The position numbers and the translations under genes were made by a program. Below the pieces are notes generated by a model that was not told where the DNA came from, did not search any database, and saw nothing but the letters and a program-made list of their open reading frames with translations. DNA of 64,000 nucleotides. Source: an uncultured Fusobacteriaceae bacterium. GTDB taxonomy: Bacteria; Fusobacteriota; Fusobacteriia; Fusobacteriales; Fusobacteriaceae. Location: the NCBI GenBank assembly GCA_947038515.1, contig CAMQWJ010000001.1, forward strand, positions 205,580 to 269,579, in the 5' to 3' direction. Position 1 is the first letter of the stretch; every line of letters begins with the position of its first letter. This document shows, piece by piece, positions 22,528-44,613 of the stretch.

Positions 22528-25296
22528 ATGAATCCAACCATAAAAAAAATTTACTTCATGCTTAAAGTTGATGAAATAGGGACTTATATTATCCCTACTA
22601 CTGACCTTTATGATGAATTAACTAATATTCCAGATATTCTTGATAATAATATTTTTTCACCTACAGCTATTAAGAGTCTGAATTTTTTTAATAGCATAAA
22701 AGACGAAGTCTTTGTTCAAAATTGGAACAATCTTTGGGAAGACAACAATAAAGATTCTAGCAGTAGACTTTCTATTTCTGATAATCCAGAATTATTAGTC
22801 CACTTTATCAAACTTCCCAATTTTATTAATGAAAATTTTAAACAAATTATTTTATCAGACTCAACAAATATTTTATCATTAAAAATATCTGAGCTGTTAA
22901 ATGACCCTACAAAGCTACAGTCTACTATTTTTTTAAATAATATTTATTCTGATTTTTTAATAATAACTGATGAATATTTTCTAAGAGATGATACTTTGTA
23001 TAAAATAAATATCAATAATCAATCTATTTATCCAATTAGCAGCCTAAATTCTATATTTCCAATTGAAAATGCTGAAAACTTTATAACACTTTTCTTTACT
23101 CATTTTCAAAATATTGATTTTAATTTTTTGGATTACACACTAGAAAATGGAGATTTTTCTCAGCTTACACCTGTGATTATAATTGAAAAAATTACTCCTG
23201 ATAATTGTCTATATATGAAAATAAACTTAGAAATTTCTACAATGAATTATGATTTTTTTATCCAAAATTCAATAAAAAAAATTGCATTAATCAATTCGTT
23301 AGAGAAAAAAATTACTCTTTCTGATATAAATACTGATGAATTTTCTGAAGTTATAACATTTATCAGTAAAATTATTGCAAAACATCAAAAAAAACTTAAA
23401 ATAAAAGATGACTACTATTTTGATAGTGAAAATCTTTTTATCTTAGAAGAGCAACTAGCTAAAGAATTTATTGGAAAAGAACTTCTTAAACTTGCAAGTC
23501 TTTACAAAATTATTGGAACTGAAAAATTAAAAAAATATAATATTAAGGCTGTCACTCCTAAAATCATAGGGATTTTTCATCATTCTTTAGATTTTTTAGA
23601 AGGTGATATCCAAATAGAGATTGAAGGTGAAACTTTTTCTCTTTTAGACACTATCTCAAAATATAAAACAGACTCATATATTTTATTAAGTGACGGTACT
23701 AATGCCTTAATCAATCATAAATATATTGAAAAACTAGAACGTCTCTTTAAAAGAAAAAATAAAAACAAAATAAAAATTTCTTTTTTTGATTTCCCTTTAA
23801 TTGATGAGTTAATTGTTGATGGAGTGTTTACTCAGGAATTAGAAAAAAACAAAAATTTCTTTAAGGGCTTAAACAATCTCAATAACTTAAAGTTTGATTT
23901 TCCCGTTATCAATGCTCAGCTTAGAAATTATCAAGAATACGGCTATAAATGGTTAAGTTACCTTGTTGATAATAATCTAGGAGCTTGTCTTGCCGATGAT
24001 ATGGGACTTGGTAAAACCTTACAAGCCATAACTTTATTAGCTCAGTCTCATAAGCAAAGTAAAGAACCTAGTTTAATCATAATGCCTAAAAGTTTAATTT
24101 TTAACTGGGAAAATGAAATACAAAAATTTGCTCCTTCACTCAGTACTACTATCTACTACGGCAATGATAGAGAGCTTTCTAGTATTAATAATTCTCAAAT
24201 CGTTCTTACCACTTATGGTACAGTTAGAAATGATATAGAAAAATTAAAAGACTATAAATTTAATATCTTGGTTTTAGATGAGTCACAAAATATAAAAAAT
24301 ATTAATGCTCAAACTACAAAATCTATTCTACTTCTTCAATCTAAAAGTAGAATAGCACTTAGTGGAACTCCTATTGAGAATAACCTTAGTGAGTTATATT
24401 CTCTTTTTAGATTTTTAAATCCAACTATGTTTGGAACTTTAAACGAATTTAATAATCTTTATGCCATTCCTATTCAAAAAGAAAATGATAAAGAAGCCAT
24501 GGAAGAATTAAGAAAAAAAATCTATCCATTTATCTTAAGACGTTTGAAAAAAGAAGTTTTAAAAGACTTACCAGACAAAATCGAACAAACTCTATTTATA
24601 GAAATGAACCCTGAACAAAAAAGATACTACGAAGATAGAAGAAGATACTATTATGATATGATCAATAATAGAATTACAACTCAAGGTTTAGAAAAATCAC
24701 AAATCCATATACTACAGGCTCTTAATGAACTACGTCAAATAGCAAGTTGTCCTGAAAACAAAAGAGATTATATAACTTCAAGTAAAAAAGAATTATTAAT
24801 TAACAATGTAAAAGATGCAGTTGCAAATGGTCATAAAGTATTAATTTTTACTAATTATTTAGCATCCATAAAAAGTATTTGTGAAAGCTTAACAACAGAA
24901 GGCATTAATCATTTATCAATGACTGGTAGTACTAAAAATAGACAAGAACTCGTTGAAAAATTTCAAACTGATTCCACTTATCAAGCATTTGTTATGACTT
25001 TAAAAACTGGTGGAATAGGTCTTAATCTTACTTCGGCAGACACTATTTTTATATACGATCCTTGGTGGAATAAAACTGTTGAGAATCAAGCTATTGATAG
25101 AGCATATCGAATGGGACAAGATCGAACGGTTTTTTCTTATAAACTTATACTCAAAGATACTATTGAAGAGAAAATTTTAAAACTTCAAGAATTAAAAAGT
25201 GAATTGCTCGATGAATTAATTTTTGAAGATAATAGCTCTTCAAAATTTTTAACAGAACAAGACATCAAATTTATTTTAGGAAATGAAACAACATAG
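22528..25296 (+). CDS. SNF2-family (Swi2/Snf2) helicase with uncharacterised ~450-aa N-terminal region
   Basis: Motif I 'LADDMGLGKT', motif II 'DESQNIKN', helicase-C block 'LIFTNYL...TGGIGLNL...DPWWN...QAIDRAYRMGQ'. Confidence 0.85.
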   Translation: MNPTIKKIYFMLKVDEIGTYIIPTTDLYDELTNIPDILDNNIFSPTAIKSLNFFNSIKDEVFVQNWNNLWEDNNKDSSSRLSISDNPELLVHFIKLPNFINENFKQIILSDSTNILSLKISELLNDPTKLQSTIFLNNIYSDFLIITDEYFLRDDTLYKININNQSIYPISSLNSIFPIENAENFITLFFTHFQNIDFNFLDYTLENGDFSQLTPVIIIEKITPDNCLYMKINLEISTMNYDFFIQNSIKKIALINSLEKKITLSDINTDEFSEVITFISKIIAKHQKKLKIKDDYYFDSENLFILEEQLAKEFIGKELLKLASLYKIIGTEKLKKYNIKAVTPKIIGIFHHSLDFLEGDIQIEIEGETFSLLDTISKYKTDSYILLSDGTNALINHKYIEKLERLFKRKNKNKIKISFFDFPLIDELIVDGVFTQELEKNKNFFKGLNNLNNLKFDFPVINAQLRNYQEYGYKWLSYLVDNNLGACLADDMGLGKTLQAITLLAQSHKQSKEPSLIIMPKSLIFNWENEIQKFAPSLSTTIYYGNDRELSSINNSQIVLTTYGTVRNDIEKLKDYKFNILVLDESQNIKNINAQTTKSILLLQSKSRIALSGTPIENNLSELYSLFRFLNPTMFGTLNEFNNLYAIPIQKENDKEAMEELRKKIYPFILRRLKKEVLKDLPDKIEQTLFIEMNPEQKRYYEDRRRYYYDMINNRITTQGLEKSQIHILQALNELRQIASCPENKRDYITSSKKELLINNVKDAVANGHKVLIFTNYLASIKSICESLTTEGINHLSMTGSTKNRQELVEKFQTDSTYQAFVMTLKTGGIGLNLTSADTIFIYDPWWNKTVENQAIDRAYRMGQDRTVFSYKLILKDTIEEKILKLQELKSELLDELIFEDNSSSKFLTEQDIKFILGNETT

Positions 25297-25304
25297 GGGA
25301 AAAT

Positions 25305-27092
25305 ATGATGAAAACACTACCATTTTATATAGAACTGGATAATTTTTATTCAAAAGAAGCACTTTTTAAACTTTTTAAAACATATTTTTTAAACTGGATT
25401 TCAGAAGGATATATAGGAAAAAATCTTAATGTTTTTGAAATTAGTCTTATTAAAGAAGATAGTTCTAAAGAGATTTTTCTTAACCTTCTTGAGGAAGCTC
25501 TGCAACCAGATACTTTTAAAGTTATCTATAAAACTTTACCAAAAAGAGTTCAAGAAATTTTCTATACAATAGCTTGGAATGGTAAATATTTTATAGAAGA
25601 TAACAGAGAGGAAATTTTAACTAATGGTACTAACTATGATTTAAATAAAAATTTACATAATGAATTTTTATTTTTTAAAATAATAAAAGATATTCCTAAA
25701 AAAGAGTACTTATCATTAAATTATAGCATTATCAAAAATATCCGAAAAGGTCTTGAAGAAAAACCTAAAGAATATCATATTCTTAACTCTGAAGAATTAA
25801 ATTATGAATTTAATGACCATAATGAAAAAGAATTTATAGAAAACATTAAAATTTATTATAATTTTTTCAAACAGTCAGGAATTTCTCTATCTTCCAGTGG
25901 GAAAATCCTTAAAAATATTAAAATTAATATGATGAAATACTGTAATATTACAGAATATTATCAAGATGGAAAAGACTTAGAGCAACTTAAAACTGAAAAT
26001 ATTGCTTTGTTTTTTTATTTAATTAATGAAGATACTTTAATTGAAAAATTTTCTGAAGATGATGGTATTAAAAATTTAGTTTTAGAGTTTCTTTCTGGAA
26101 AAGCATTAGATAAAAATTCTCTTTCATACTCTTTCCTCTATTTAAATTTTTTAAAAGGAAATGCAGGTAAATTAGAACAAAAAGAAAATTTAATAAAATG
26201 TTTTAATACTATTACAAAAGTTATTAAAGAATTTAGTTCCACCAATACTTCCAACTCTACTGTAAGTATTGATAATATTATTAATAGAATTCTTTTCCAA
26301 GATGATTTTATTGATATAATTGCCCCTGATATAGCTTATGAGTATCTTTATATAAATGAAGCTAACTATGAACGGACTAAAATTTTAAATTATGAAAAGT
26401 ATATTGAATATGTAATTATTCCATTTATCAAATCTATTTTTTTTCTTTTAGGAAGTTTAGGTATTTTTGAAGTTTTCTATAATAAACCCAAAAATGATAA
26501 TTCTCTATTCATAAAAAGTGGTCACTTAAGTAAATTTGATGGTTTAAAATATGTAAAACTTACAGAATTTGGTAAATATGTTTTTGATATACAAAAAAAA
26601 TATCAGTTTAAAGAATTAAAAACTGAAGGTACTTTAGAACTTGATGAAGAGCGTCTTATTATCACAATTTTAGGAGATTCACCTTCTAAAACTATACTTT
26701 GTGAAAAAATTGGTATTAAAATTAGTCCTCATAAATATAAAGTTACAACTGAAACTTTACTCAATGATATTTTTTCTAAAACAGATCTTATAAAAAAAAT
26801 CAATAATTTTAAAAGCAGTGTGAAATGTGATTTGCCTACATTTTGGGAAGAATTTTTTAATACTGCCCTACAAAATAGTCTGGCAATAGAAGTCACAACT
26901 AAATATGTAGTTTTAGCATTAAAAAACAACAAAGAATTGTTACAACTTATTTCAACCAATAAAAAATTAAAAGACCTTGTTCTAAGATGTGAAGATTACC
27001 ATTTACTAGTAAAAAAAGAGAACTTTGAAATAGCAATTGCTACTTTTAAAGAATTAGGATATATAATTGAAAATTTTTCTCTGGATGAATAG
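25305..27092 (+). CDS. Hypothetical protein (595 aa), no recognisable domain; operon partner of the SNF2 helicase
   Basis: Long uninterrupted ORF starting 9 bp after the SNF2 stop, with its own RBS 'GGGGAAAATATG'. Shared terminator at 27160-27215. Confidence 0.5.
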   Translation: MMKTLPFYIELDNFYSKEALFKLFKTYFLNWISEGYIGKNLNVFEISLIKEDSSKEIFLNLLEEALQPDTFKVIYKTLPKRVQEIFYTIAWNGKYFIEDNREEILTNGTNYDLNKNLHNEFLFFKIIKDIPKKEYLSLNYSIIKNIRKGLEEKPKEYHILNSEELNYEFNDHNEKEFIENIKIYYNFFKQSGISLSSSGKILKNIKINMMKYCNITEYYQDGKDLEQLKTENIALFFYLINEDTLIEKFSEDDGIKNLVLEFLSGKALDKNSLSYSFLYLNFLKGNAGKLEQKENLIKCFNTITKVIKEFSSTNTSNSTVSIDNIINRILFQDDFIDIIAPDIAYEYLYINEANYERTKILNYEKYIEYVIIPFIKSIFFLLGSLGIFEVFYNKPKNDNSLFIKSGHLSKFDGLKYVKLTEFGKYVFDIQKKYQFKELKTEGTLELDEERLIITILGDSPSKTILCEKIGIKISPHKYKVTTETLLNDIFSKTDLIKKINNFKSSVKCDLPTFWEEFFNTALQNSLAIEVTTKYVVLALKNNKELLQLISTNKKLKDLVLRCEDYHLLVKKENFEIAIATFKELGYIIENFSLDE

Positions 27093-38328: not shown

Positions 38329-38365
38329 ACTTATATATCTAAAATAAAAAAACTAGAGAATAATA

Positions 38366-38416
38366 AACTGTAACCATGAAACTGGACACATATAAAAAAG
38401 TGTCTGTTTCATGGTT
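38366..38416. repeat. ~50-bp palindromic element, copy 1 (AAACTGTAACCATGAAAC...GTTTCATGGTT)
   Basis: Hairpin just after the CAP-domain gene. An inverted copy occurs at 39533-39590. Confidence 0.7.
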
Positions 38417-38723: not shown

Positions 38724-38918
38724 ATGGAAAAATTGAACTCAAAAATAATAATAAGTAAAGTCAAGATAACTATGAGTATAGAAGGTTTTTCAATTAAAAA
38801 AGAACAGATTAAAATTTTGAAAAATATAATCGAACAAAAGAGTGATTCTAATTCTATAATTGAAGAACGAAAAAAAATGTTATTGAATAAAAAGGAAAAA
38901 ATATGGTATGCGATGTAA
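38724..38918 (+). CDS. VbhA-like anti-Fic antitoxin (inhibitory [S/T]xxxE[G/N] motif)
   Basis: 64 aa. 'KITMSIEGFS' contains T-M-S-I-E-G, which equals TxxxEG. Overlaps the Fic start by 16 nt. Confidence 0.55.
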   Translation: MEKLNSKIIISKVKITMSIEGFSIKKEQIKILKNIIEQKSDSNSIIEERKKMLLNKKEKIWYAM

Positions 38919-39514
38919 AAGATTATACTTCTAGAGATACCATTTATATGTATTCAAATACAGATGTTTTTAAAAATAAATTTGATATTCGTGACTTAAA
39001 AGATTTAAAAGAACAAGAAATGTTTTTCACCTCAATAAGAATAACTGACCTACAAATAAAACCTCTTTTGGGTGATTTAACATTTGAACATTTAAAAAAA
39101 ATTCATAAGTATATATTTCAAGACATATATGATTTTGCTGGTGAGACTAGAAAAGTTGATATAGAAAAAGGGAATAGTAAATTTTGTTGTTCCCAATATA
39201 TAGAAATAGAGGCAGAACGAATATTTAAAAAATTGGCGGAAGAAAAACATTACTCTGAATATAATTTTTTGCAATACAGTGAAAAAATAGCAAATTTTAT
39301 GGGTGATCTAATTGCATTACATCCTTTCCGTGAAGGGAATGGTAGAGCAAATAGAGAATATTTAAGAATTCTTTGTTGGAGGAATGGGTACGAACTAAAC
39401 TATAATTTTTTTTCAAAAGAAGAAATTTTGAAAGCAGATATTTTAGCTTTTAATGGTGATATATCTTTATTACTAGAATTGATAAATAAGGGACTAATAA
39501 ATAAAATTAAATAA
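38903..39514 (+). CDS. Fic/Doc family protein (class I Fic toxin, FicT/VbhT-like)
   Basis: Canonical Fic motif 'HPFREGNGRANR' (HPFx[DE]GNGRxxR). Confidence 0.8.
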   Translation: MVCDVKDYTSRDTIYMYSNTDVFKNKFDIRDLKDLKEQEMFFTSIRITDLQIKPLLGDLTFEHLKKIHKYIFQDIYDFAGETRKVDIEKGNSKFCCSQYIEIEAERIFKKLAEEKHYSEYNFLQYSEKIANFMGDLIALHPFREGNGRANREYLRILCWRNGYELNYNFFSKEEILKADILAFNGDISLLLELINKGLINKIK

Positions 39515-39532: not shown

Positions 39533-39590
39533 AACTGTAACCATGAAACAGACACTTTTTTATATGTGTTCAGTTTTATGGTTACAGTTT
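39533..39590. repeat. ~55-bp palindromic element, copy 2 (inverted relative to copy 1)
   Basis: AACTGTAACCATGAAACAGACAC-loop-GTGTTCAGTTTTATGGTTACAGTTT. Its reverse complement matches copy 1, including the loop. Confidence 0.7.
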
Positions 39591-40475: not shown

Positions 40476-40889
40476 TTAATTTTTATATGATTCTATTAAA
40501 TGTTTTACTATTGGAATATCTGCTGGAACCCAAACTAAAGATAATAAACTTTCTGGTTTAAGCCAAAGATATGCTTCATGCTCATTAAGTGTAAGTTTCC
40601 CTGCAATAATATCACATTCAAAACAAGTTAAATTAATAATAAAATTTTCTCGTTCACAAATTGTTTCCATTAAAATTTCTTTACTTTTTACTACTAAATC
40701 TAACTCTTCTTTAATCTCACGTTCTATTGCTTTTTCTTTTGTTTCGTTAGGTTCTATCTTACCGCCTGGAAATTCCCAATAATTTCCTAAATCTTTATCT
40801 TTATTTCTTAAAGTACAAAGAATTTCATTTCTTTCATTTTTAATAACTGCTCCTACAACATTTATTATTTTTTTATTGTTTATAGTCAT
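40476..40889 (-). CDS. NUDIX hydrolase (MutT-like)
   Basis: Nudix box 'GGKIEPNETKEKAIEREIKEELDL'. Its start ATG overlaps the stop of the upstream helicase-nuclease as ATGA. Confidence 0.8.
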   Translation of the reverse strand: MTINNKKIINVVGAVIKNERNEILCTLRNKDKDLGNYWEFPGGKIEPNETKEKAIEREIKEELDLVVKSKEILMETICERENFIINLTCFECDIIAGKLTLNEHEAYLWLKPESLLSLVWVPADIPIVKHLIESYKN

Positions 40890-43756
40890 ATAAATTTTTC
40901 CTCCGAAATCAAATATTCATAAAGATGAGGTTCTATTTCATTTTCCATTTCCAAAACATATTTTACTAAATAAGTTTCATCACTTTTTTTAGTTTTAGTT
41001 GCTTCTTTTACATTTTTAACTTTACCTAAATAATAAAAATTTTCACTATTAGTTTTTTTCAAAAATATCTGAATATTGTAATAATTATTTGCAATAAGTC
41101 CTTCTTTTGTAATTTTTCCTTTTCTCTCCAAGTCTCTATTATTTTTAGAAAACCAAGTTAAAGTTTTAGAATTCAAAATTTTATTATCATATGATGTAAA
41201 CGAACTACTCGAATCCAAAGTTATAAAAACAGTTACAATTTTCGACTCATCAAAAATATTGTATCCACTCACTTGCAATCCATTATTAAAATCAAGATTC
41301 AAATATCTATGAGCTTCCTCTTTTGTATAAGATTTAAAAAGTGTTATTGCTTTTTGGGATAATTGCTTATAATTTTTTTCTATATAATTAAAATTATACT
41401 CTAACAAATCTAAAATCAGTGTTTCAAAATACTTATTTTTATTAAGTGATTCTTTAAAATCTTTCTTTAATAAATATGTATTCTTCTCTCCTTTCTCTAC
41501 CAGTGGAAGATAAGATTTTATAGTTGAAAAACTTGTGAAAATTGTCTTCATTAAATGAGAAAAAGCATTTTTAATATTGTCTTCTTGATCATATAAATCA
41601 TGTTTTGTCTCTAATATTTTTTTTATTCTATCCTCATCAATAAAATCATTTTCTATTAAATATTTTAATATTTCAAATTCATGAACTCTTTTTCCTGGAG
41701 TAAAAAACTTAGAAATAAAATTCAAATAATTTTTTTCATTCTCTGACAATTTTTTTGAATAGGAATTATAATCTTTATCAAGTATGCTTAATACTTCATC
41801 ATAATTACCCTTATATTTTAAAACTACACTTGGTTCTATCATATTTTTAGTAAAAAAATCATTTAAATAAGGAGTTCTTCCCAATTGTTTCTTCAACAAA
41901 TTAAAATTTTCTTGAATATTTTTTTTTGTTGAAAAATTCGTATTATTAATATTTTTAAAAATTGTCTCTTTAACTATTTCATCAAAAACTACAGAACTTT
42001 GCCCTGGTATTAAATCTGTTCCACCAGTAATAAATCTTTTCATAAAATCTTTATCATAACTATTATTTTGAGAAATAGCGATAGGAACAAGAAAGTTTTT
42101 ATCATAATTTCCTATAAAATCCAATATCACTACAAACTCTTTATCGACACATTTTCGAAGCCCACGTCCAAGCTGTTGAATATACACTATAGATGAGTCT
42201 GTTTCTCTTAGAAGCACTACCTGGTTTATACAAGGTATATCTATTCCCTCATTAAAAATATCAACGGTAATAATATAATCTAGTTCTCCCTCTTCCAGTT
42301 CTTCAATACTATTCTCTCTTATACTTTCACTATCATCACCTGATAAAAATTTTGTTCTAAAATTATAATTATTAAGAGCTTCACTTAAAAGCTTCCCTTC
42401 TAATCTCCCAGAAACAAAAATTAATCCTTTAACAACTGGTCCACTAAATCCATAATATTTTATCTTTTCAACAATATGTCTTATTCTCTCTTCACTTACT
42501 AAATCATTAATTGTTGATGTTTTAGATATCTCTTTTCCATCAACAAAAATATCTGAAATACCAAAATAATGAAAAGGACACAGTAAATTTTCATTTAAAG
42601 CATCATGTAATCTAATTTCATAAGCAATAGTATGATTAAAAAGTTCATAAATATCAAATTCATCATTTCTTTCTGGTGTTGCTGTCATTCCAAGTAAAAA
42701 TTTAGGCTTAAAATAATCCATAATTTTTTGGTACGTGCTTGCTCCACCATGATGAACTTCATCTACAACTATATAATCAAAAAAATCTGGACTAAATTTT
42801 TTCAAATGTTCATCTTTATTCAAAGTCTGAACCATACAAAAAAAATAATTTGAATTAAGGTCTGAATTAGCTTCATAAATTTCCATTTTGGTATGAGGTA
42901 TAATAGTTTCAAAAGTCTGCTTTGCTTTTGTTAAAATATTTTTTCTATGAGCAAGAAATAACATTTTTTTTGGTTTAACTTTTTTCACATCAAAAGCAGT
43001 TAAAAAAGTTTTCCCTGTTCCTGTTGCACTAATTAAAAGAGCTTTTTCTTTTCCTTGTTTTCTAAGTAATTCAATATTTAAAAGAGCCTCTTGCTGCATA
43101 AAGTTGGGTTTTATAATTTTTTTATTATTAGTACGACTATCTCTATTCCCCATTGGCAAATATCTTTTTTCTCTAAAAGCCTCATAAAGTTCATTATATT
43201 CACTTACCTCGTATTCTGTAAGTGGTTCTAATGAATTATAAAGATAATTAAACTCTTCTAAAATTTCTTTAACAATTTTTCCTTTATCTAAAGAGGTTAT
43301 CTTAAAGTTCCATTCATGATTAGTTGTTAAAGCATTTTGAGTAAGGTTACTACTTCCAACTATTAAGCTCCAAACATTATTTTTTCTAAAGAAAAAACCT
43401 TTAGCATGAAGATTTTCTCCTTTTAAAAGTCTCAGTTTAATATTTTTAAATTCTAATAACCTAGATAATGCTTTTGGTTGTGAAAAATTAAGATAATCTC
43501 CTGTTAATATTTTACCTTTAATTCCTCTTTTTTCTAAAATTCTTAATTGTTCCAATAGTAATATTAATCCACTTTCTGTTATAAAAGCTACTGAAATCAA
43601 AAATTCATCACACTCTTCCAATTCCTGACGAATTGTCATTACAATTTGTTCTTTTCTATTTGTCAATAATCTATGTTGATAAGAATAATTAGAATTCGTT
43701 TCTCTACTAATTAAACTTGTTTCTGCACTTTTTAAAATTTCCCTTGATACTATCAT
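40886..43756 (-). CDS. PLD-like nuclease / SF2 (ResIII-type DEVH) helicase / long uncharacterised C-terminal domain (DUF3427-like architecture)
   Basis: N-terminal PLD-like 'LHAKGFFF...GSSNLT', Walker A 'ISATGTGKT', 'VVDEVHHGG', a helicase-C block, and a ~330-aa C-terminal extension. Confidence 0.8.
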   Translation of the reverse strand: MIVSREILKSAETSLISRETNSNYSYQHRLLTNRKEQIVMTIRQELEECDEFLISVAFITESGLILLLEQLRILEKRGIKGKILTGDYLNFSQPKALSRLLEFKNIKLRLLKGENLHAKGFFFRKNNVWSLIVGSSNLTQNALTTNHEWNFKITSLDKGKIVKEILEEFNYLYNSLEPLTEYEVSEYNELYEAFREKRYLPMGNRDSRTNNKKIIKPNFMQQEALLNIELLRKQGKEKALLISATGTGKTFLTAFDVKKVKPKKMLFLAHRKNILTKAKQTFETIIPHTKMEIYEANSDLNSNYFFCMVQTLNKDEHLKKFSPDFFDYIVVDEVHHGGASTYQKIMDYFKPKFLLGMTATPERNDEFDIYELFNHTIAYEIRLHDALNENLLCPFHYFGISDIFVDGKEISKTSTINDLVSEERIRHIVEKIKYYGFSGPVVKGLIFVSGRLEGKLLSEALNNYNFRTKFLSGDDSESIRENSIEELEEGELDYIITVDIFNEGIDIPCINQVVLLRETDSSIVYIQQLGRGLRKCVDKEFVVILDFIGNYDKNFLVPIAISQNNSYDKDFMKRFITGGTDLIPGQSSVVFDEIVKETIFKNINNTNFSTKKNIQENFNLLKKQLGRTPYLNDFFTKNMIEPSVVLKYKGNYDEVLSILDKDYNSYSKKLSENEKNYLNFISKFFTPGKRVHEFEILKYLIENDFIDEDRIKKILETKHDLYDQEDNIKNAFSHLMKTIFTSFSTIKSYLPLVEKGEKNTYLLKKDFKESLNKNKYFETLILDLLEYNFNYIEKNYKQLSQKAITLFKSYTKEEAHRYLNLDFNNGLQVSGYNIFDESKIVTVFITLDSSSSFTSYDNKILNSKTLTWFSKNNRDLERKGKITKEGLIANNYYNIQIFLKKTNSENFYYLGKVKNVKEATKTKKSDETYLVKYVLEMENEIEPHLYEYLISEEKFI

Positions 43757-43968
43757 TTTATTCTCCTAACTTAAATATTATTATTTTTATTCATAAAAAA
43801 TAACCTTGATAAATAGAGTATACCAATCTCTATCTATAGTTGTAAAGGTTTTATTGTTCTAGTTTTTTATAAAAATAGCAATTTGACTTTCAATATAATA
43901 GGGCGTATAATATTTTTAGGTATTAATTTTTTATTATTATTTTATTTTTTAAAATTAGGAGGAATCTC

Positions 43969-44613
43969 ATGATATCAGAAAAATTAACTCTCTTAAGAGA
44001 AAATTTTAAAAACAATGCTTCTCCTGAAGCGAAAAAAATTATTATGAATAGTTTAAATGAGCTAAAAACAAAGAAAATTTTAGAAACTTCTTTAAAAATT
44101 GGTGATAAAATACCCAACTTTACTTTATCAAACTCAGAAAATATAAATATTAATTCTGATGATTTATTATCTAAGGGCGAGCTTATTATCAATTTTTATA
44201 GAGGTAGTTGGTGACCATACTGTGCCATAGAGCTTGGAGGTTTCCAAGACATATTAACAAAAATTAGAAGTAAAGGAGCAGAAATAATTGCCCTCTCTCC
44301 TGAATTACCAGAAAAATCTTCTGTTTTTAAAAAAAAATTAAGTCTTGATTATGAAATTCTTACTGATAAAAATAACGAAATTGCAAAAGCTTTTGGAATT
44401 TCATTTACTTTAGATGACGAATTGATAGAACTTTATAAGGAGTTCTCTATTGATTTGAAAATATCTAATGGTACTAACAATTGGGAACTACCTGTTCCTG
44501 CAACATACATAATTAGTCGTGAAGGAATTATTCTTTTTTCCTGGTTAGATTTAGATTATACCAAAAGGGTTGAACCAGAGGATATTTATGCTCTTTTAAG
44601 TGATAAAAATTAA
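43969..44613 (+). CDS. Peroxiredoxin-like (AhpC/TSA, redoxin) thiol-disulfide oxidoreductase with in-frame TGA at 44212-44214 (putative selenocysteine; W-U-P-Y-C)
   Basis: ORFs 43969-44214 and 44422-44613 are in the same frame. No other stop lies between them. The TGA replaces the first Cys of the 'FYRGSW-C-PYC' active site. Confidence 0.5.
44233..44248 (+). promoter_or_regulatory. Candidate bacterial SECIS apical stem-loop (CTTGGA-GGTT-TCCAAG) 19 nt downstream of the in-frame TGA
   Basis: Perfect 6-bp stem with a GGUU apical loop. The G-U in the loop and the distance to the UGA fit the bacterial SECIS model. Confidence 0.45.

Follow-up and report, generated by a model that had tools for sequence, protein, structure and literature searches.

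Why should the gene for a large helicase-containing nuclease run directly into the gene for a small Nudix hydrolase? This question is raised by a locus in an uncultured Fusobacteriaceae bacterium (NCBI GenBank assembly GCA_947038515.1, contig CAMQWJ010000001.1). We analyzed a stretch of 64,000 nucleotides of this contig (positions 205,580 to 269,579 of the forward strand), hereafter called the window, whose open reading frame (ORF) listing contains a 956-aa ORF and a 137-aa ORF on the minus strand (Table 1). The large protein is very probably a SauUSI-family Type IV enzyme, that is, a restriction endonuclease directed at modified DNA, and we tentatively propose that the Nudix protein is a sanitizer of modified dCTPs that would protect the host from this nuclease. 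As a whole, a Type IV nuclease accompanied by a dCTP-cleaning Nudix enzyme is the best explanation of the locus, and we assign it a probability of roughly 0.55. The pair adds a new and divergent member to a system already known, with an orthologue of a known enzyme rather than a new combination, and the Nudix link itself has already been published (Xu 2011).

The identity of the nuclease is indicated by matches that run along nearly its whole length. It matches the PADLOC model mREase_IV (PDLC03658, Type IV methyl-directed restriction) with E 2.1e-196, residues 15-949 aligning with positions 16-951 of 953, and the PDB entry 7CLG_A with E 1.4e-194, residues 15-950 aligning with 16-952. The latter is deposited as 'Putative helicase'; from its length of 953 residues and the HxK motif at position 119, both in common with the S. 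aureus gene (L090), we take it to be the crystal structure of SauUSI (Tumuluri et al. 2021). The window enzyme and SauUSI have the same four parts in the same order, are of similar length (956 vs 953 aa), align from end to end and each have an adjacent Nudix gene. Identity to S. aureus SauUSI is 38% overall, with 46.5% in the ATPase, 39% in the nuclease, 27% in the coupler and 25% in the recognition domain; the nearest homologues, 52-59% identical, are from Fusobacteriaceae. The initial annotation had described a PLD/SF2-helicase/DUF3427 architecture paired with a Nudix gene, and the ORFs, motifs and Pfam search (PLDc_2, ResIII, Helicase_C and DUF3427 were all matched) agree with it.

According to PMC3141236, SauUSI is a Type IV enzyme that requires ATP and cleaves DNA containing 5-methylcytosine (5mC) or 5-hydroxymethylcytosine (5hmC), with a preference for S5mCNGS sites. 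Four domains make up its structure: a PLD nuclease, an ATPase of the SF2 helicase-like type, a coupler formed by alpha-helices and a target-recognition domain that is SRA-like. The enzyme homodimerizes through the nuclease domains, and its ATPase is switched on when a target is recognized and then powers translocation (PMC7913695). In vitro, purified SauUSI needs no partner protein for cleavage or translocation (PMC3141236, PMC7913695). The motifs quoted by the initial annotation lie at the corresponding catalytic positions of the window enzyme (H117/K119, GSSN 134-137, GTGKT 246-250 and DEVH). The His, Lys, Gly, Ser and Asn of the PLD domain are invariant in 79/79 homologues, H117 and K119 aligning with SauUSI H119 and K121. 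Walker A (GTGKT, mapped to SauUSI T256) and the motif VI arginine R534 (SauUSI R544) are conserved in the 79 homologues and SauUSI, and the DEVH box is invariant across the Fusobacteriaceae alignment. One difference from SauUSI concerns the HxK(x)4E motif of the latter, whose Glu-126 is Arg in the window enzyme and Lys or Arg in most homologues.

The C-terminal region of about 330 aa, which had been regarded as uncharacterized, aligns with the SauUSI coupler and its SRA-like 5mC reader. In a direct pairwise alignment, four of the six modelled residues of the 5mC pocket are kept (SauUSI Y831, F841, I842 and W868, aligned with Y832, F844, I845 and W868), and two are changed (M829 to S830 and D858 to N858), in a domain with just 25% identity. 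In SauUSI, Asp-858 is the modelled base-specific contact and Met-829 a wedge (PMC7913695). Among the 79 homologues, Asn at position 858 is found only in L001-L004, all from Fusobacteriaceae, and in L066. A MAFFT alignment placed Ile opposite SauUSI Tyr-831; we attribute this to an alignment shift at 829-831, since HMMER and the pairwise alignment both pair Y831 with Y832. By analogy with SauUSI, the window enzyme almost certainly reads a modified base in the same manner, and it is from this analogy that we infer the modification and the sequence that it recognizes.

No C5 or N6/N4 methyltransferase motif was found in any ORF or frame of the 64-kb window, a search that covers the window and not the whole genome, and this is as expected for a Type IV enzyme. 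The membership in the SauUSI family supports the initial reading of the protein as a restriction-like defence nuclease, although not the systems with which it had been compared. Neither the Mokosh nor the Hna model was among the 14 PADLOC families matched at E <= 0.01. The comparison with the Res subunit of Type III systems fails as well: the nuclease is an N-terminal PLD domain, there is no methyltransferase motif in the window, and 'ResIII' is only the name of the Pfam helicase domain. According to PMC6765204 and PMC6212794, SRA-HNH enzymes and PUA/DUF3427-HNH or PD-(D/E)XK enzymes carry a related modified-base reader module and are, in contrast to the window enzyme, short reader-nuclease fusions without an SF2 translocase; no such short nuclease turned up beside a Nudix gene in the surveyed neighbours.

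The two genes are coupled as had been noted, with the stop codon of the nuclease gene overlapping the Nudix start codon. The junction reads ...AAA TTT ATA TGA, and the ATG ACT of the Nudix gene begins inside it. Each gene has its own ribosome-binding site. The promoter-like site upstream of the nuclease gene has 10/12 consensus matches and an extended -10, and is putative, being a consensus match only. A scan of the window found no terminator-like site between the two genes or between the Nudix gene and the next gene. At least 19 metagenome contigs from this species carry the overlapping pair, so that it is not an accident of assembly.

Table 1. Features of the nuclease-Nudix locus, in window coordinates
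Feature	Coordinates	Strand	Evidence
Very probable SauUSI-family Type IV modification-dependent restriction endonuclease, 956 aa	40886..43756	-	PADLOC, PDB matches
PLD-family nuclease domain, residues 51-172, H117-x-K119, G134-S-S-N137	43241..43606	-	Pfam PLDc_2 1.2e-11
SF2 helicase-like ATPase/translocase: ResIII (residues 215-363), Helicase_C (residues 443-534)	42155..43114	-	Pfam 2e-39, 1.5e-12
DUF3427 region, residues 680-949: part of coupler and SRA-like target-recognition domain	40910..41719	-	Pfam 1.3e-47
Nudix (MutT/NudG-like) putative (deoxy)nucleoside triphosphate pyrophosphohydrolase, 137 aa, PDC-S07	40476..40889	-	PADLOC, Pfam, PDB
Nudix box, residues 42-64, GGKIEPNETKEKAIEREIKEELD	40698..40766	-	Alignments
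ATGA overlap (nuclease TGA / Nudix ATG)	40886..40889	-	ORF listing and sequence
GGAGG ribosome-binding site of Nudix gene, within nuclease 3' end	40900..40904	-	Sequence; 10 nt before ATG
AGGAG ribosome-binding site of nuclease gene	43763..43767	-	Sequence; 6 nt spacing to ATG at 43756
Promoter-like site upstream of nuclease gene: TTTACA-18 nt-TATACT, TG preceding -10	43817..43846	-	Consensus scan
Segment swapped for 3,185-bp cassette in some strains (HNH endonuclease and C5 methyltransferase)	40700..40930	-	BLAST breakpoints
Polymorphic nuclease 3' segment, last ~100 codons including base pocket, two alleles	40924..41220	-	Sliding-window identity vs L176

The Nudix protein matches the PADLOC candidate defence family PDC-S07 (PDLC04899) with E 1.8e-48, residues 6-134 aligning with profile positions 4-131 of 135, and the Pfam models NUDIX (8.2e-15) and NUDIX_4 (5.4e-12). 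Its Nudix box is complete (G43-KIEPN-E49-TKEKAIE-R57-E58-I-K-E61-E62-L-D-L vs GX5EX7REUXEEXGU), with Asp in place of the penultimate Gly, as in the B. fragilis protein of PDB entry 3GWY. In the homologues linked to a SauUSI-like gene, G42, G43, K44, E49, R57, E58, E61 and E62 are invariant (68/68), and E46 is found in 66. The subfamily-invariant W38, W109, W120 and A123-D124 are all present in the window protein, and Y80 is absent. D124, part of a 'PAD' motif, is found in 68/68 linked homologues, where E. coli MutT has 'PAN', and H104 is invariant in the 119 closest homologues, where MutT has Gly. In MutT, the Asn of the 'PAN' motif (Asn-119) contacts 8-oxoguanine; the window protein has Asp there.

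Comparisons with structures and curated models place the protein near, rather than within, the characterized groups. The best PDB match is the solution structure 5X1X (1e-25), followed by NudG 2RRK (2.7e-19) and B. fragilis 3GWY (6.6e-18), whereas the E. coli MutT alignment covers just residues 9-71. The NCBIfam NudG model NF007834 gives 91.5 bits vs a cut-off of 156, which makes the protein a homologue and not an equivalog, and the MutT models give 79.3 vs 97.9 bits (TIGR00586) and 75.7 vs 148 (NF008044). Nudix models for NAD and ADP-ribose give only about 18-19 bits, and with the NAD diphosphatase model at 19 bits vs a cut-off of 158, the NAD-derivative substrate suggested by the initial annotation finds no support. 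The nearest relatives are (d)NTP pyrophosphohydrolases of the MutT/NudG type. The alignment of 5X1X with the S. aureus protein P0242 (SAUSA300_2432, Newman Sae2385) shows a difference at a single position. P0242 is encoded 1 nt upstream of sauUSI, and a structure of a SauUSI-linked Nudix protein therefore already exists; a literature search on 5X1X found nothing relevant. P0242 resembles the window protein in size, Nudix box, EH, W-x-PAD-I-P and genomic partner, and differs from it in sequence (about 40% identity), in having Tyr vs Arg-80 and in being encoded upstream rather than downstream of the nuclease. In the window, the nuclease gene accordingly comes first and overlaps the Nudix gene by 4 bases, whereas in S. 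aureus the Nudix gene precedes the nuclease gene at a distance of 1 nt.

A candidate substrate is suggested by the two closest characterized relatives, both of them cytidine-nucleotide enzymes, which share the 'PAD' and 'EH' motifs with the window protein (2RRK and 3GWY). E. coli NudG (Orf135) has a kcat/Km of 1.3e6 M-1 s-1 on 5-Me-dCTP vs 4.7e4 on CTP. For B. fragilis Q5LBB1 (PDB 3GWY), the kcat/Km values are 4.8e6 M-1 s-1 on 5-Me-dCTP, 4.4e6 on 5-hydroxymethyl-dCTP (5-hm-dCTP) and 8.5e4 on 5-OH-dCTP, with much lower activity on canonical NTPs and Km values of 2.5-10 uM. The identity to the SauUSI-linked set averages 43% for Q5LBB1 and is 40% for the window Nudix. R72 and R77 of NudG, two residues important for substrate recognition, are not conserved in the alignment. 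The two bases attacked by SauUSI are precisely those whose triphosphates are 5-Me-dCTP and 5-hm-dCTP. A DNA polymerase incorporates both as well as it does dCTP, and degraded methylated DNA has been suggested as their cellular source (PMC10742078).

We propose the following division of labour. By analogy with SauUSI, the SRA-like domain would flip a 5-substituted cytosine (5mC or 5hmC) out of incoming DNA and recognize it; this would set the SF2 ATPase to translocating on the DNA, and both strands would be cut by the PLD nuclease domains, which form a pair in the homodimer. Unmodified host DNA would not be a substrate, hence the lack of a partner methyltransferase. The translationally coupled Nudix enzyme would be an accessory outside the cutting machine, removing modified dCTPs, for example those from degraded methylated foreign DNA, before they are re-incorporated. 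Modified cytosines in the host chromosome would be targets for the cell's own nuclease, and this the Nudix enzyme would avert. It may thus be a dedicated 5-methyl/5-hydroxymethyl-dCTP hydrolase and the second, 'immunity' component of SauUSI-type restriction, an assignment that we offer with less than even confidence; such an enzyme might also starve modified-cytosine phages. A place outside the cleavage mechanism, contrary to what the initial annotation supposed, is indicated by an S. aureus nudix deletion that lacks the transformable phenotype of a sauUSI deletion (Monk 2012). Among the searchable literature, we found no paper proposing a pool-sanitizer role in Type IV systems, which is no proof of absence, and none combining Nudix, S. 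aureus and 5-methyl-dCTP.

The association of the two genes extends far beyond this strain. A conserved MutT/Nudix gene linked to sauUSI was described in at least 60 pairs, with its 'function to be examined' (Xu 2011; PMC3141236), and a 2025 preprint reports PDC-S07 adjoining Type IV restriction-modification genes in 23/23 S. suis cases. We scanned one genome per species for relatives of the nuclease: all 8,000 scored candidates had E <= 1e-20, and at least 580 species genomes were confirmed, of which the best 80 loci were surveyed. A PDC-S07-type Nudix gene lies beside the SauUSI-like gene in 68 of these 80 species loci, which answers the concern that the adjacency might be an accident of one strain. 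The Nudix gene is downstream on the same strand, as in the window, in 47 loci, upstream on the same strand, as in S. aureus, in 16, and downstream but convergent in 5; none was found in 12, five of them with cut flanks. The linked loci come from Fusobacteriaceae, Clostridia, Bacilli, Veillonella, Bacteroidales and archaeal Methanobrevibacter. In the downstream arrangement, the gap is at most 30 nt in 30/45 species and a -4 overlap is found in 3/45. The pairwise identities of the two partners are correlated (Mantel r 0.62, reached in 0/2000 permutations), to which shared species phylogeny contributes.

When metagenome loci were instead seeded with the Nudix gene, 41/80 had a PLD/helicase neighbour within 1.5 kb. 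All seven helicase-containing partners checked in Pfam carry DUF3427, one of them a split form whose PLD nuclease is encoded by its own ORF, and an eighth partner (L152) is a PLD-only ORF. We considered whether linked partners that matched only the PLD and helicase hidden Markov models (HMMs) have another reader, and rejected this in view of the DUF3427 found in 7/7; the recognition-domain HMM was too narrow. The association is therefore strong and specific to the PLD-helicase-DUF3427 architecture, and it is obligatory in neither direction. The module is rare on plasmid and phage records: 24 of 72,556 plasmid records have it, megabase replicons among them, as do nine phage records, mostly unannotated metagenome bins. 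A C5 methyltransferase beside the SauUSI-like gene is not recurrent, with three motif-positive ORFs across the 160 surveyed loci.

Several variants of the arrangement were observed in these surveys. The enzyme is split in L158 (3204-5999) and also in L127, where a separate small PLD ORF is followed by a helicase-DUF3427 ORF with an adjacent Nudix gene; split SauUSI forms were mentioned without data by Xu et al. 2011. Nine Methanobrevibacter loci (L013, L017, L023, L024, L026, L027, L030, L035 and L078) have the pair with the Nudix gene upstream and a nuclease 37-41% identical to that of the window, a hint that the pair has passed between bacteria and archaea of the gut. Next to a PDC-S07-like Nudix gene, a Schlafen group 3 (DUF2075-type) helicase is encoded in L172 (5442-7247), L166 (1806-3800), L133 (1406-2353) and L078 (3772-5418). 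In Fusobacterium sp. GCA_029264395.1, the order is SauUSI-like gene, Nudix gene, SLFN helicase gene and an unknown ORF of 498 aa, the first three spaced by 8-12 nt. The Schlafen helicase may be a second, rarer partner of the Nudix protein.

Within the species of the window, the junction of the two genes is variable. The Nudix gene is intact on about 30 contigs, and a 64-aa remnant (codons 74-137) is left on 6, where the segment given in Table 1 is replaced by a cassette (L176 1787-4971, also L177 and L178) whose flanks match the window at 96-99% (BLAST). The cassette encodes an HNH_2 endonuclease of 325 aa and a C5 DNA methyltransferase of 595 aa, the latter with the motifs FSGIG, PCQSFS, ENV, QNRER and GN and about 270 aa inserted between motifs I and IV. 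A restriction-modification system that writes 5mC beside a nuclease that putatively reads it is an apparent conflict, which implies that the two recognize different sites or that these strains have an inactive nuclease. The 3' end of the nuclease gene is also polymorphic: between the window and L176, two alleles are 68-83% identical, vs about 100% upstream. The window allele reads '...SSFTSYDNKILNSKTLTWF...' and the alternative allele '...SLYDYNNVFLDSKTFYWF...', and each is found in five of the protein variants P0367-P0376. The specificity domain seems to have recombined or diversified. We rejected the idea that the alternative allele arrived with the methyltransferase cassette; it is also present without the cassette, with an intact Nudix gene, in P0368, P0373 and P0376, and allele and cassette are thus not strictly coupled.

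A number of observations weigh against the proposed pairing of a 5mC-reading nuclease with a modified-dCTP sanitizer. On the side of the nuclease, the Asn that replaces the Asp-858 contact of SauUSI makes the recognized modification uncertain. On the side of the Nudix protein, codon 80 encodes Arg (CGA, 40650-40652, minus strand), whereas Tyr is found in 68/68 linked and 118/119 closest homologues, among them the nearest proteins from Fusobacterium, and Phe in E. coli MutT. Arg80 is present in every full-length Nudix variant read from this species and may alter base recognition, specificity or activity; the protein is a member of the PDC-S07 subfamily by all other criteria, yet a deviant one. 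It scores below both the NudG and the MutT cut-offs of NCBIfam, and its substrate is carried over from homologues that average 35-43% identity. We rejected the B. fragilis 5-Me-dCTPase as a SauUSI-linked example: the 3GWY gene has DprA-like, DUF2867 and HTH genes as neighbours, and the argument on the substrate therefore stays homology-based. The kinases listed for 5-methyl-dCMP in PMC10742078 are all from phages.

The genomic distribution supplies further counter-evidence. Of the 80 Nudix-seeded loci, 39 are unlinked and lie mostly among housekeeping genes and scattered defence genes. If the Nudix enzyme gave general protection from modified cytosine, it should also accompany other 5mC-dependent nucleases, and none recurred: McrBC, Mrr and SRA-HNH are absent from the 25 most frequent Pfam/PADLOC families listed for 62 neighbours of the 39 unlinked loci. 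Solo SauUSI-like genes without a neighbouring Nudix gene occur in F. varium, among metabolic genes, and in L001, L002 and L004, and in the cassette strains the nuclease ORF is intact (951-954 aa) beside a truncated Nudix gene, which argues against the latter being essential. Given these solo nucleases, the strains with a truncated gene and the viable S. aureus nudix deletion, the Nudix protein is not essential.

Among the other accounts of the Nudix protein, the one that survives best makes it an offensive second arm, which would destroy the 5-hm-dCTP and 5-Me-dCTP of modified-cytosine phages and leave the nuclease to cut residual modified phage DNA. The hydrolysis of both compounds by a homologue at about 5e6 M-1 s-1, the listing of the family by PADLOC as a candidate defence gene and the tight co-expression with a nuclease whose targets contain these modified bases would all fit, as would the reported phage kinases that phosphorylate modified dCMPs (PMC10742078); the account would also explain why plasmid restriction is unaffected by a nudix deletion. 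We nevertheless consider it unlikely. In the searchable literature we found no phage-challenge data on any PDC-S07 member, the low Km of the B. fragilis enzyme would suit a scavenger of trace contaminants better than a depleter of pools, and the unlinked homologues sit in housekeeping contexts.

By the next account, the protein is an ordinary housekeeping sanitizer of the MutT type, acts on 8-oxo-dGTP or general (d)NTPs, and shares an operon with the nuclease for historical reasons without any functional tie. Database names (8-oxo-dGTP diphosphatase or (deoxy)nucleoside triphosphate pyrophosphohydrolase) and matches to the MutT models at 75-79 bits are in line with it, and so are the unlinked half of the subfamily (39/80) and the nudix deletion without a transformable phenotype. 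The inheritance of one operon, however, does not explain adjacency in three gene orders across phyla and archaea; the identities of the partners co-vary, the score is below the MutT equivalog cut-off, and 'PAD' replaces the MutT 'PAN' in a protein that E. coli MutT matches over residues 9-71 only. We regard this account as improbable.

Less probable still is a role for the Nudix protein in the cycle of the nuclease itself, as a regulatory subunit or by hydrolysis of a cofactor or signal such as (d)ATP or NAD and ADP-ribose derivatives. The ATGA overlap and the generally tight junctions suggest co-ordinated synthesis, and the co-variation of partner sequences would fit a physical interaction. 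Purified SauUSI, however, acts alone in vitro, the nudix deletion did not mimic the sauUSI deletion, and NAD and ADP-ribose models score far below their cut-offs. A helicase hydrolyses ATP to ADP and phosphate, not pyrophosphate, and Nudix enzymes are not pyrophosphatases. Both points speak against the suggestion that the Nudix protein deals with pyrophosphate (Xu 2011; PMC3141236). Finally, it is hardly credible that the large protein is a RadD-like or UvrB-like helicase-nuclease of DNA repair or recombination rather than a restriction enzyme, as its partial matches to the RadD (9.3e-26) and UvrB models are limited to the helicase core and far under the cut-offs (90 vs 720 bits), whereas the full-length match is SauUSI, with PLD nuclease and SRA-like reader included.

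The surroundings of the pair agree in part with the accessory stretch from 38 to 45 kb envisaged by the initial annotation. The Fic protein encoded nearby has a match (6e-63) to PDC-S04, a candidate defence family, and the nuclease-Nudix junction is polymorphic. On the other hand, the GC content across the region is ordinary, no tRNAs and no Rfam matches were found in the 64-kb window, no mobility genes were seen around the pair, and the block from an OYE reductase to an MFS transporter is the same in all three long contigs that were compared. Housekeeping genes dominate the remainder of the window, with those for ribosomal protein S6, GcpE, LytB, riboflavin synthesis and transporters. With about 5 kb, three defence-associated genes and strain-level exchange at the junction, this is a small defence locus and not a large island.

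Additional features were noted elsewhere in the window. A palindromic element of 45-52 nt is found in two copies (38365-38416 and 39539-39590), the only ones in the window, which form an inverted pair with 96% complementarity that brackets the Fic-plus-64-aa module at 38724-39514; the two copies could act as terminators in a pair or delimit a small mobile cassette. A peroxiredoxin/thioredoxin-like ORF (43969-44613, plus strand) has an in-frame TGA (44212-44214) at 'FYRGSW*PYC' and continues to 214 codons. Gene callers split it into pieces of 81 aa and 63 aa, and no Rfam SECIS match was found at the gathering threshold; the TGA fits a selenocysteine in a putative UxxC redox motif. An SNF2-family helicase of 922 aa (22528-25293, plus strand), whose C-terminal half matches PADLOC DpdE (1.5e-125) and ZorD (9e-107), is followed by an ORF of 595 aa (25305-27089, plus strand) with no PADLOC match. 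Another variable point close to the locus lies beyond about 46.2 kb, left of the OYE reductase/DsrE genes, where strains of the species differ: CapC/Mur-ligase-like capsule genes are found in the window and L081, a glycerate kinase and a GntP permease in L082, and other genes in L083.

In summary, the locus brings together a very probable Type IV enzyme and a Nudix protein of a family whose connection with such enzymes predates the window. SauUSI is regarded as a major obstacle to the transfer of genes into Staphylococcus aureus. Its family is very large, and most of the members surveyed here have a Nudix partner. Should the proposed modified-dCTP sanitizer be confirmed, it would for the first time tie the sanitation of nucleotide pools functionally to modification-dependent restriction, and would explain the gene noted in 2011. 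A eukaryotic parallel is found in human DCTPP1, an all-alpha MazG-type dCTP pyrophosphatase which is described as selective for abnormal cytosine-derived triphosphates and as modulating 5-methyl-dCTP metabolism and global methylation; the analogy is functional only, as this enzyme is of an unrelated fold and family, is eukaryotic and is uncoupled from a nuclease that reads modifications. The principle could extend to other modification-dependent defences, and it could matter in practice for obtaining transformable strains and for understanding how modified-cytosine phages are resisted.

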